A stretch of 64,000 nucleotides of DNA from Eledone cirrhosa (Eukaryota): positions 37,696,001-37,760,000 of the forward strand of contig OZ024751.1 of NCBI GenBank assembly GCA_964016885.1, given 5' to 3'. Position 1 is the first letter of the stretch, and each line of letters opens with the position of its first letter. Of this stretch, positions 8,493 to 62,481 are shown piece by piece. The notes below the pieces were generated by a model that saw only the letters and a program-made list of their open reading frames with translations, did no database searches and had not been told where the DNA came from. The translations under genes were made by a program, and so were the position numbers.

Positions 8493-8566
8493 GTCTCTGT
8501 GGCGCAATTGGTTAGCGCGTTCTGCCATTAACCGAAAGGTTGGTAGTTCGAATCGTCCTAGTGATG
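8493..8566 (+). pseudogene. tRNA-Asn pseudogene (anticodon loop CCATTAA)
   Basis: 74 nt, closely matching metazoan tRNA-Asn-GTT (GTCTCTGTGGCGCAAT.GGTTAGCGCGTTC...AACCGAAAGGTTGGT.GTTCGA). Mismatches in the anticodon, T and acceptor stems. Confidence 0.8.
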
Positions 8567-41422: not shown

Positions 41423-41622
41423 CGAAGGAAGTGTGGTAAGGAACCAGGTGGACCGTAATGCACTAGAGTACTCAATACTTTGGGTAGTAGAGTGGGTATT
41501 AGGAAAATGTTCAAGACCCCGACGGCAGAGCTCAAGCCGTTTCGACGGCTATTTCTGGACAGTCCAGAAATAGACGTCGAAACGGCTTGAGCTCTGTTGT
41601 CGGGGTCTTGAATATATTCCTA
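41421..41622. mobile_element. Family C fold-back element, copy C1
   Basis: ~79-nt tail plus ~61-bp inverted arms centred at 41561; (TA)n flanks. Confidence 0.85.
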
Positions 41623-42273
41623 TATAAATACATATATATATACATCATATTCTATCGCGATCAGACACCCTTTACCCTCAACAATAACCATCTGATACCG
41701 CAAAAATAGGGAAATTTCGATAAATTACCCACGGGATTGTCATTAAGTATTTTATAATGTATTGTTCTGGTGTGTCTAAACGTTAAAATCGAAAAAAATC
41801 AAAAAGCCCCACAGGACACGCGATGGCAGTCCCAGGGAATATCTATCTTACACCCCCCCCCCCAGCGATAGGGCTCCCAGCTGGTAAAGAGCCAGAGACA
41901 AATGGCCAGTCCACCTTGTTATAAATCTGGCCCTGTATATGATTATCATAGCCTCAACCCCACTCACCAACTGATTCTATCGAATATATTATGTGACGTG
42001 AAAACCGATCTTTACAACGAAAACGATGTATCTAACTTGCGTACAGTTTTATTCCAGGTCAATATGTGAACTTTTATTTGGGGGGAAATCTCCCCAAACT
42101 ATATTGTATCGAAACATGCCTTCCACCACCAACGAAATCAATAGCCTTGCCAATAATTACTACTAAAATATATAAGACAAAGGAAGTTTTATAAAGAAAC
42201 AGGAACAGTGTGATTACGGGGAAGATAGCATGCTATAATGACTTGGCAACAATCTATTAGATACATTGATTAT

Positions 42274-44092: not shown

Positions 44093-44283
44093 AACGAAGG
44101 AAATGTGGTAAGGAACCAGGTGGACCATAACGCACCAAAGTACTCAATACTTAGGGCAGTAGAGTGGGTAATAGGAACCAGTAAGACCCCGACGGCTGAG
44201 CTCAAGCCGTTTCGACGGCTAATTCTGGACCAAGAATTAGCCGTCGAAACGGCTTGAGCTCAGCCGTCGGGGTCTTACTGGTT

Positions 44284-46201: not shown

Positions 46202-46441
46202 AAAGAACACAAGAGCGTCTACAACATCAAAAGATTTATATTGGCTTACAATGTTTCTTCCTTACGTAACCGTAGGATTCGTCAGAGCTATAAAAGGGGT
46301 TTGATTGGTGTTATGGACTCTACCAACCAAACATTCAAGTATCATATATACGGCTCTGCTCCAAAGCATAGAGCTAATTATTATGCTGCCAATACCTTAA
46401 TGGGACACGGGTATACAATACCTAGCTCCTATTAACCTAAG
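46199..46441 (-). mobile_element. Family E hammerhead-containing insertion between two (TA)n tracts
   Basis: ~243-bp unique segment bounded by (TA)n and containing the hammerhead at 46242-46290. Confidence 0.55.
46242..46290 (-). ncRNA. Minimal type-I hammerhead ribozyme (family E)
   Basis: UAGCU-CUGACGA-A UCC UACG guua CGUA a GGA A-GAAA-CAUUGUA^AGCCA. Confidence 0.65.
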
Positions 46442-46912: not shown

Positions 46913-47378
46913 ATATTTATGTGTACTCTGCAGTATTTATAATTGAAATACTGACAGATCTGTACCACTTAAAACCAAACTAATACTTAAATATATTTGT
47001 CAATATTACTTCTTTTGAACTGTCGTGGTAGTAAACATACTTTCAAATATATTTTGTAACGTGAAAGATGAAGTTTGAAGTTTGATTGTATATATATATA
47101 TATATATAAACGGAAAAAATGAAACGAAATTTCATTTCACACTCTTAGTACGGCTGTTACTTAAATATAAGTATGTACACGTACATACATATATGTATAC
47201 AGACGTACAGTAGTATGTATATATATATACATACATGTATGCACACATATATATATATGTACGTATGGATTCACCGACCATTTATTATAATGCTCGGTGT
47301 GTTTGTAAACAAACATCCCGTATTCAGCAGTAGTGTCTAGCAACCATCGTTGCTCGTTTGTTCAACACTGACAAATGA

Positions 47379-47421
47379 ACGCTGTACTAGTTTCAAGCTT
47401 ATTAGCTATCGTCAGCAACGT
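47379..47421 (-). ncRNA. Minimal type-I hammerhead ribozyme (family D)
   Basis: ACGUUG-CUGACGA-U AGCU aaua AGCU U-GAAA-CUAGUA^CAGCGU. Stem I is 6 bp, stem III is the palindrome ACUAGU, and the triplet is GUA. Confidence 0.8.
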
Positions 47422-47588
47422 ATACCTTCCTGCCAGATTGTTGAACGTATATACTTACCTTATGCATATTAACGGCTGAGTAGCCCAATTTGCATATCGA
47501 GTGGGTTAATCGATATGCAAATTGCGCTACTCAGCCGTTAAAATGCATAAGGTAAGTATATACGTTCAACAATCTGGCAGGAAGGTAT

Positions 47589-47631
47589 ACGTTGCCGACG
47601 ATAGCTAATAAGCTTGAAACTAGTACAGCGT
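47589..47631 (+). ncRNA. Hammerhead (family D) with core mutation CCGACGA
   Basis: Inverted copy of 47379-47421 carrying U4C. Confidence 0.6.
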
Positions 47632-47824
47632 GCCTTTGTCAGTGTTGAACAAACGAGCAACGATAGTTGCTAGACACTACGGCTTAATACGGGATGTTTG
47701 TTTACAAACACACCGAGCATTATAATAAATGTTCGGAGAATCCATACGTACATATATACATGTGTGCATGTATGTATATATATATACATACTACTGTACG
47801 TCTGTACACATATATGTATGTACA

Positions 47825-47877
<53 letters not shown>

Positions 47878-48049: not shown

Positions 48050-48253
48050 CGAATGAAGTGTGGTAAGGAACCAGATGGACCGTAACGCACCAGAGTACTC
48101 GATAATTTGGGTAGTAGAGTGGGTAATAGGAAAATGTTCAGAACCCGACGGCAGAGCTCAAGCCGTTTCGACGGCGATTTCTGAACTCTTTCTGGACCGT
48201 CCAGAAATAGCCGTCGAAACGGCTTGAGCTCTGCCGTCGGGGTCCTGAACGTT

Positions 48254-48305: not shown

Positions 48306-48310
<5 letters not shown>

Positions 48311-48660
48311 GTGTGTATACTTACATTTATGTATCAGCTGTAGTAGGGCGAGAAATAAAATTCTAATTTTAATTTTAATATTCAGCAAGGCCTACTCGCT
48401 CATTATGCAAATGCGGTTACTAAGCCAATCTATACTTAAGAAAATATTATATATTAACAGATTGGCCTGATGAAGGGTAAAGACCCAGAAACATGTTGAT
48501 TCTTCCTCTAAGCCAGTGTTGAATAAACAAGTGATGATCGGTCCCCGGGACGGCACAGCTTCAAATTGGGCCGTTTGTTTACAAACCAATCGAAATGTTT
48601 TATTAATGTTCGATAAACCCATACGTACATATATATATATGTTTATATGTATGTGTATAT
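48306..48660 (+). mobile_element. Diverged family D' unit with hammerhead core at 48467-48497
   Basis: Colinear homology with D (tatgcaaat..tact.agcc; cagtgttgaa.aaac; gtttgtttacaaac; ccatacgtaca). Core reads CUGAUGA-a GGGU aaag ACCC a-GAAA-CAUGUU; stem I is degenerate. Confidence 0.7.
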
Positions 48661-58566: not shown

Positions 58567-58568
<2 letters not shown>

Positions 58569-58661
58569 GCTTCTACAGGATTAGAACTGTTTCATTCGGG
58601 AGAAATCATGAGGTCCTGATAATTTCTCCTGAATGAAACAGTTCTAGTCATGTAGAAGCCT
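58567..58661. repeat. Family F ~40-bp-arm hairpin containing a hammerhead-like 3' half
   Basis: aggcttctaca..gggagaaat / atttctcct..tgtagaagcct. The right arm reads stem-GAAA-CAGUUCUAG-UC. Confidence 0.6.
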
Positions 58662-58756
58662 GCCTTTCTATATTAAATATTTATACTCTGCTTAGTATTG
58701 AATAACTTACTTACTGTGGTTACCCCCGATTGAACCCGGGATTAACATATATATAT

Positions 58757-59406
58757 ATATAAGTATGTACACGTACATACATATATGTATACAGACATAC
58801 AGTAGTATGTATATATATACATACATGCGCACATATATATATATATGTACGTATGGATTCACCGAACATTTATTATAATGCTCGGTGTGTTTGTAAACAA
58901 ACATCCCGTATAAAGCCGTAGTGTCCAGCAACCATCGTAGCTCGTTTGCTCAACACTGACAAAGGAACGCTGTGCTAGTTTCAAGCTTATTAGCTATCGT
59001 CAGCAACGTATACCTTCATGCCAGATTGTTGAACGTATATACTTACCTTATGCATTTTAACGGCTGAGTAGCGCAATTTGCATATCGAGTGGGTTAATCG
59101 GCCGGGTGCACCGAAAACGATAAACGGAAAAAATGAAACGAAATTTCATTCCCCACTCTTAGTACGGCTGTTACTATAATATATCCTTTGTCAGTGTTGA
59201 ACAAACGAGCTACGATGGTTGCTGGACACTACGGCTTAATACGGGATGTTTGTTTACAAACACACCGAGCATTATAATAAATGTTTGGTGAATCCATACG
59301 TACATATATATATGTGTGCATGTATGTATATATATATACATACTACTGTACGTCTGTATAGATATATGTATGTACGTGTACATACTTATATTTAAGTAAC
59401 AGCCGT
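58757..59406. mobile_element. Family D copy D2: one near-complete permuted monomer (58757-59175) plus an inverted arm (59184-59406)
   Basis: Near-identical to D1. Hammerhead on the minus strand at 58967-59009 with the triplet mutated to GCA. Confidence 0.85.
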
Positions 59407-61469: not shown

Positions 61470-62154
61470 GTAGAGGTTATATTTAATTTGTTGGGATACA
61501 ACAAGCAAATATTTTTATAACTGATATAAAGCACTCAACAAAAGTTTGGAGTAAAAATACAATATATTAACAAATGGAAACTATATTTATAAAAGCATAT
61601 TTATTTCATTATACATATTTCAAGGACACCAAAGCAAATTATGGTGCGCTTTCATCAGATAAAATATTTATTTATTTATTTATCTATCCATGCTATATTT
61701 ATCCACTATATATTTATCTTTTCGCTTCAACATCTCATAAAATTACGTTAATACAACACTCTCTCACTTAGGGTTTTATCTCTTTCTCTTTCTTTTGTTT
61801 TTCTTATTCCTTTTCCTTTTCTTTTTTTTTTGTTTTCCTTCTTTGGGTTTGCTCTTTCTTTCTCTTTTTCTTTTTTCCCTATTCCAACGGCTTAATTTAA
61901 ATGTACGGGATTTAAACCTCTCCGACACTAATTTGCATAATAGACCAATAATAAAATTAGTAACCCCACTATCCGGGAGCTTCCAACAGACATGGTCGCA
62001 TTCCTTCAAGGGTATGTCAATATTTGTTTATAAAACTGATCTATATTATATTTTATCTGATGAAAGCGCACCATAATTTGCTTTGGTGTCCTTGAAATAT
62101 GTATAATGAAATAAATATGGTTTTATAAATTTAGTTTCCATTTGTTAATATATT
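61470..62154. mobile_element. Family A copy A3; hammerheads at 61602-61666 (-) and 62049-62113 (+), ~380-bp spacer
   Basis: Tail, inverted arms and (TA)n flanks; both cores are intact. Confidence 0.85.
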
Positions 62155-62260: not shown

Positions 62261-62290
<30 letters not shown>

Positions 62291-62293
<3 letters not shown>

Positions 62294-62481
62294 AACAAGT
62301 AAGACCCCGACGGCTGAGCTCAAGCCGTTTCGACGGCTAATTCTGGACTGGGTTAGCCGTCGAAACGGCTTGAGCTCAGCCGTCGGGGGTCTTACTTGTT
62401 CCTATTACCCACTCTACTACCCTAAGTATTGAGTACTTTGGTGCGTTATGGTCCACCTGGTTCCTTACCACATTTCCTTTG

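Follow-up and report, generated by a model that had tools for sequence, protein, structure and literature searches.

Family D, a repeat of about 422 nt found in the genome of Eledone cirrhosa, is best explained as a non-LTR retrozyme, which probably spreads from a circular RNA monomer with the help of a Penelope-like element (PLE) of the Neptune type. From the sequence data we put the probability of this reading at about 0.68. In the scheme proposed here, arrays with two or more hammerheads would be transcribed, adjacent ribozymes would form a double hammerhead by pairing between their palindromic stems III and would excise monomers, and a host ligase would circularise these. The PLE endonuclease would cut a TA run, and from each DNA end reverse transcription would begin at its own fixed internal position on the RNA and go round the circle, past the ligated cleavage site, a varying number of times. 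Both cDNAs would be joined head-to-head, and older arrays would afterwards be expanded and scrambled locally by recombination. The anatomy of the insertions, the read-through of the cleavage site and the uniformity of young arrays fit such rolling-circle reverse transcription. Non-LTR retrozymes and a model of circle-templated reverse transcription have been described in metazoans including coral, mussel and axolotl (Cervera and de la Pena 2020, PMC7229834).

Two copies of the family, D1 and D2, and one copy of a sister family, D', are present in the window, that is, in the whole stretch of 64,000 nt that was analysed. Unit positions u1 to u422 are counted on the plus strand, beginning at the tail end (u1 is window position 59120 and u63 is 58760); the hammerhead-sense RNA of the D2 main arm corresponds to the minus strand. 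The features are as follows.

47106 to 47512, minus strand: D1 left arm (u1-403), which starts at the tail end inside a TA run.
47510 to 47842, plus strand: D1 inverted arm (u391 to u57), whose outer limit is the second fixed end, within a TA run.
48306 to 48630, plus strand: D', a one-armed member of the older sister family, with the hammerhead core from 48467.
58757 to 59183, minus strand: D2 main arm, one full lap from the second fixed end, which adjoins a TA run (about 58750-58760); 58754-59119 is u57-422, followed by 59120-59183 as u1-64.
58967 to 59009, minus strand: D2 minimal type I hammerhead, with stem I, CUGACGA from 59003, stem II AGCU/AGCU, GAAA and the palindromic stem III.
59120 to 59181, minus strand: tail segment of about 60 nt between the two fixed insertion ends, 59120 being the first of these (u1).
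59184 to 59406, plus strand: D2 inverted arm (u269 to u45), which crosses the junction and is without most of the tail.

Between the end of the D2 main arm (59120-59183) and the outer beginning of D1 (47106-47169) the match is 93.8%, and D1 47162-47512 leads back into the start of D2 (58754-59100) with a match of 94.3%, so that the unit closes head-to-tail. The junction is crossed once more by the D2 inverted arm and is also spanned by D', at about 70% identity. Closure into a ring of about 420 nt had been claimed in an earlier note on this DNA and is borne out, both by these matches and by tandem D arrays with periods of 420-430 nt. That note expected the junction to recur in other copies and proposed a genome search for tandem arrays. 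The junction 33-mer was found in 5,775 exact copies in the 3.0-Gb genome of the species itself, the hammerhead 35-mer in 5,424 and the tail pattern in 10,316, with no match to the reversed-pattern control in each case; the copies are dispersed over many chromosomes, within TA runs, and arrays reach 16 units per arm in one young insertion. The note had also described three permutations of the unit. D2 and D' do cross the junction, but the three copies represent two fixed outer ends with variable inner breakpoints and not random permutation; two fixed priming sites and random stops would account for all three.

The unit has a G+C content of 38% and is non-coding, with one minimal type I hammerhead, as the note had it: the longest stop-free frame in a natural four-unit D stretch is 53 aa, and no ORF lies between abutting units. 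An ORF for reverse transcriptase (RT) and GIY-YIG endonuclease between pseudo-LTRs (pLTRs) is absent from D. At the DNA level, tandem 422-nt units with one type I hammerhead each and no ORF support the assignment to retrozymes made in the same note.

Scanning of the window with Rfam at the gathering score gave no match to a hammerhead family and only a tRNA-like match; the hammerhead call rests on motif and covariation. In an alignment of 16 natural stretches of D, older D and D', which represent about three lineages, double changes that keep the pairing were found in 3 of 6 pairs of stem I and 2 of 4 pairs of stem II, and further hairpins of the unit covary too. The core was intact in 46 of 57 hammerhead motifs from the 30 loci best matching the D core. 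No inherited variants (0/64, against 2.4 expected) fell in the catalytic core, a difference that is not significant. Stem III consists of one pair closed off with a tetraloop that is palindromic, and the division into two subfamilies by this palindrome, ACUAGU in D and ACAUGU in D', which had been suggested earlier, is supported, D' being the older sister family. The two palindromes self-pair with computed energies of -6.8 and -6.4 kcal/mol; such pairing is a requirement for a double hammerhead between neighbouring units. The monomer is predicted to fold well beyond 100 shuffled sequences (z = -7.38), and the predicted circular fold amounts to -146 kcal/mol in the hammerhead sense versus -119 kcal/mol in the antisense. 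The one-pair stem III with its tetraloop resembles that of axolotl HHR_Amex1, which is described as best cleaved as a dimer; for axolotl motifs of such shape, cleavage is poor in single motifs and good in dimers (PMC7229834). We infer from this that a lone circle would be protected from recutting.

The predicted cleavage site in D2 lies between 58973 and 58972 (u276 and u275). A GUA triplet had been read there; the sequence is ACUAGC-A, the triplet is hence GCA, and the D2 hammerhead is predicted to be inactive as a result of this mutation. The D2 inverted arm starts 6 nt beyond the cleavage site and so contains no hammerhead. Among the arms of D1 and D2, the D1 left arm alone has an intact hammerhead, with its core from 47415 and a predicted cut after 47385; the core in the D1 inverted arm is mutated (CCGACGA at 47595). 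With one hammerhead per strand in D1 and one mutated motif in D2, neither copy can release a monomer. The D' hammerhead has stem II GGGU/ACCC and a GUU triplet; in the window copy a deletion has removed part of stem I. The D' family, for which 2,505 candidates were found (75-90% alike to the window copy among the matches listed), has the GUU triplet and shares the tail layout of D. D1, D2 and D' are thus ordinary insertions, dead-end products. Two adjacent intact hammerhead cores in one arm, a combination not present in these three, were found in 10 of 85 loci within the stretches examined.

These 85 loci were taken from the first 86 listed among 2,567 exact TA-plus-tail ends in the genome (2 of the 85 duplicate each other) and were therefore selected on the u1 end but not on the second end, at u53-63. 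An inverted second arm was present in 47 of them, with scattered inner ends, and 41 of the 47 inverted arms ended at u53-63. In 30 loci chosen by core similarity, with the ends ignored, most outer ends were again at u1 or close to u60, within TA runs. The outer ends of D insertions are thus fixed at two positions some 60 nt from each other, within (TA)n, and the inner breakpoints vary. Judged from the sequences, this is the tail and inverted-arm signature of PLEs, for which tandem, inverted and tail structures are described (PMC8557442). In anole Poseidon, RT has two internal start sites, between which the tail lies, and each of the DNA strands is cut and extended (PMC11167929).

The cleavage site itself left little trace among the breakpoints. 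Only 3 of 131 inner ends lay within 10 nt of it, against 6.8 expected, and 57 of 84 tail arms ran through it; a cut linear monomer was on these grounds rejected as the main template. An excess of inner ends was seen in the tail arms near u395-15 (15/84 against 8.6 expected, p = 0.02, for an interval picked post hoc) and none in the inverted arms (2/47). The idea that each arm halts after exactly one lap was accordingly set aside.

D has much in common with the endonuclease-bearing PLEs of the Neptune/Nematis type described by Craig et al. (2021, PMC8557442) and Frangieh et al. (2024, PMC11167929): both form partial tandems with an inverted arm truncated at the 5' end, have a tail at one end only, insert into microsatellites and contain a minimal hammerhead with a palindromic stem III. 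Unlike these elements, D has no ORF and the whole element is the repeat unit. Its tail of about 60 nt is as long as in local autonomous families, versus 30-40 nt in the PLEs described in these two sources. Multicopy head-to-tail insertions are also described for non-autonomous elements of Chlamys such as MRC1 (PMC8557442).

GIY-YIG loci are abundant in the genome, with 10,597 candidates, of which 150 were listed, and some contain long RT plus GIY-YIG frames. One frame of 938 aa has a CX4CX2C linker ahead of the endonuclease, a linker tied to Neptune/Nematis PLEs (PMC11167929). Two autonomous families end in TA runs, the first 76 or 142-144 nt and the second 122 or 177-183 nt beyond their respective hammerheads; the spacing of their ends, about 55-66 nt, is as found for D. 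A D-like pLTR after the ORF was searched for by DNA homology in 59 of the 150 listed GIY-YIG loci and none was found. The D-like matches in these loci were at a distance from the endonuclease (L082 and L083 were inspected at single-base level), and in L083 a TA run separates the D-like copy from the PLE end. The sampled autonomous families have pLTR hammerheads of their own, unrelated to D. In nine loci with autonomous RT plus GIY-YIG families (L072, L073, L081, L083, L088, L090, L211, L216 and L219) we observed a degenerate hammerhead-like core in the pLTR, which reads UUGAAAA or UUGAUAA instead of CUGANGA, has an ACCGGU stem III and is kept across copies.

Head-to-tail closure is also expected from tandem DNA or from a linear multimer and is by itself not proof of circular RNA. 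Better evidence for the putative circle comes from the uniformity of young two-armed arrays. One young insertion (L071, at C1:348.707-348.717 Mb) contains 22 hammerheads in two arms (16 and 6) with a period of 422, and 19 of its 20 complete units are identical, the remaining one having a 3-nt insertion. A second insertion of the same young subfamily (L231) is likewise uniform in both arms, and two changes that are absent from L071 are present in all 9 of its pieces, over both arms. For a new change to become fixed throughout the two arms, the copies must have passed through a single monomer, that is, a bottleneck. Rare variants were shared at 1.74 per kb within the same arm, 2.25 per kb with the other arm and 0.06 per kb between loci (126 of 131 loci had usable units; L206 and L021 were excluded from the within-locus pairs). 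In L071, all 28 bins of positions 2579-2912 were covered by contigs from another organism's run of unrecorded kind, one 98-nt piece being identical. A relative, contamination or diet would each fit as the source, and contigs cannot show strand, ends or circles.

Not all variants follow this pattern. In 33 loci with at least 3 overlapping units, 54 variants occurred in every unit, 24 in both arms yet not in every unit, 17 in one arm only and 243 in a single unit; rare variants present in all units numbered only 7, in 5 loci. These counts indicate that conversion between arms or a mixed template occurs. The older long arrays have a mosaic make-up with higher-order repeats of 2 and 4 units, which shows local expansion and conversion; local expansion can thus also make or homogenise arrays, and long arrays alone were rejected as evidence for a rolling circle. 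Arrays of about 40 or more units at C1:51.77-51.79 Mb (L207-L209) and C1:53.354-53.371 Mb (L241-L242) show such mosaic, higher-order structure, as of a retrozyme turning into a minisatellite. Arrays of two alternating units (L206 and L210) were considered as copies of a dimeric circle, and for L210 this was rejected; its last partial unit is without the variants of its phase, and local duplication fits better. The identity of tandem units could in part be an assembly effect. That the young arrays directly record rolling-circle, target-primed reverse transcription of one 422-nt circle, for up to 16 laps, is on the sequence data a possibility that we place somewhat short of an even chance. A Neptune-type PLE would in that case have primed the circle at two internal sites, at both ends of a cut TA repeat, and the 9-kb head-to-head insertion would have been written in a single event.

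The alternative that deserves most attention keeps the PLE and dispenses with the circle. D would be a non-autonomous PLE parasite whose template is the uncleaved linear multimeric transcript of a tandem array, the hammerhead being dispensable for insertion, and uniformity would come from homogeneous source arrays with local unequal crossover or conversion. Uncleaved RNA is the dominant template in vitro for the autonomous anole Poseidon, and hammerhead mutants of this PLE inserted normally (PMC11167929), which counts against a circular template in D. A linear multimer also explains the read-through of the cleavage site and the 24 variants common to in-register units of both arms but not to all units, it accounts for the mosaic old arrays, and the ten loci with two adjacent intact hammerheads are possible sources of it. 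It would, however, need an extra fast route by which a new mutation could fill both arms first, as the comparison of L071 with L231 requires. Tandem units, moreover, favour cleavage as double hammerheads, given the self-duplex energy of the D palindrome and the efficient cleavage of axolotl dimers (PMC7229834), and compensatory changes have kept the hammerhead in an element without an ORF. We therefore regard a linear template as unlikely, though a serious competitor. In vitro data on retrozymes also weigh against the circular-monomer reading: 8 of 9 predicted Xenopus retrozyme dimers were reported not to cleave (10.64898/2026.07.22.740005).

Two further alternatives are much less probable. 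D might be only the pLTR and tail of a long coding PLE, known from truncated remnants, as would suit its PLE-like ends, tail and inverted arms and the presence in the window of truncated pLTR remnants of other families. Units nevertheless join directly, up to 16 of them to an arm, no shared flank, adjoining RT or other adjoining coding flank follows the inner end in any of 37 single-arm insertions, and the pLTR hammerheads of the sampled autonomous families are unrelated ones. Together with the 53-aa limit on tandem frames, this contradicts the pLTR explanation for the sampled copies, and we consider it very improbable; the earlier view that D is not a mere pLTR holds in the samples tested. 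Still less credible is a DNA-level satellite or foldback element without an RNA stage, in which the hammerhead would be a relic. The long mosaic arrays do resemble minisatellites and the palindromic arms foldback elements, but the outer ends are different sequences 60 nt apart and not terminal inverted repeats, the inner ends are variably truncated, copies are dispersed in TA runs over many chromosomes, and the RNA fold is strand-biased and covarying.

As a retrozyme, D agrees in most respects with the metazoan non-LTR retrozymes described in PMC7229834, which are short tandem non-coding units with G+C below 45% and one type I hammerhead each, have self-paired monomers (a fold predicted for D) and occur in genomes that also contain PLEs. 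The D unit is slightly longer than the 170-400 nt given there. The main text of that source does not mention inverted arms or target sites. D also resembles the vertebrate non-LTR retrozymes of Li, Clavereau and Pollet (2026, 10.64898/2026.07.22.740005) in its monomer, dimer and multimer copies, its co-occurrence with PLEs and the local amplification of arrays. Those retrozymes are argued to be PLE derivatives from pLTR homology in 24 of 57 Xenopus families (10.64898/2026.07.22.740005); the link of D to PLEs rests instead on insertion anatomy and within-insertion uniformity, no pLTR homology having been found in the 59 GIY-YIG loci. For giant squid, 235 hammerhead-1 matches are tabulated without analysis (PMC6962438). 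In the literature searched, most subscription papers being outside its scope, we found no description of a cephalopod retrozyme, nor of two-site priming and inverted arms in any retrozyme.

A circular intermediate of retrozymes and their dependence on PLEs have already been proposed, the latter from co-occurrence and pLTR homology. What family D adds is evidence at the level of the insertion, namely a tail between two start sites, inverted arms, TA targeting and read-through of the cleavage site, as well as very young insertions in whose two arms a single monomer recurs. If the young arrays do record rolling-circle reverse transcription of one circle by a Neptune-type PLE, hammerhead-made circles would be tied to the unexplained tandem, inverted and tail structure of PLEs, and a still-active system would be available in which to test the role of the PLE hammerhead. 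Since the genome combines upwards of 5,000 intact hammerheads with a very young subfamily and with RT plus GIY-YIG elements that have open frames, the proposed step from circle to tandem is directly testable.

Several other elements were observed in the window. Inverted pairs at 1186-1468 and 61610-62105 contain another hammerhead family with a longer stem II and an ATATAT-type stem III; since a similar motif follows the GIY-YIG ORF in L082, they are likely pLTR remnants of another PLE family. Just upstream of D2, at 58567-58661, a short palindrome resembles the CTGATGA...GAAACAGTTCTAG motif of L077, L081 and L087 and is probably a small two-armed insertion of another family. A G+C-rich palindromic repeat family occurs in TA runs at 48126-48253, with copies near 41506-41623, 44185-44275 and 62289-62388, and another single hammerhead-like motif, with stem III ACATTG(T), is present on the minus strand at 46247-46285. 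Upstream of the hammerhead, ATGCAAAT stands beside a conserved GGCT-ACTC-AGCC hairpin and is kept in both D (59077-59085 region) and D' (48405-48412). We take ATGCAAAT to be octamer-like, and it could presumably be part of an internal promoter. The tRNA-like Rfam match lies at 8493-8566 (33.9 bits, with several mispairs) and is possibly the head of a tRNA-derived SINE.
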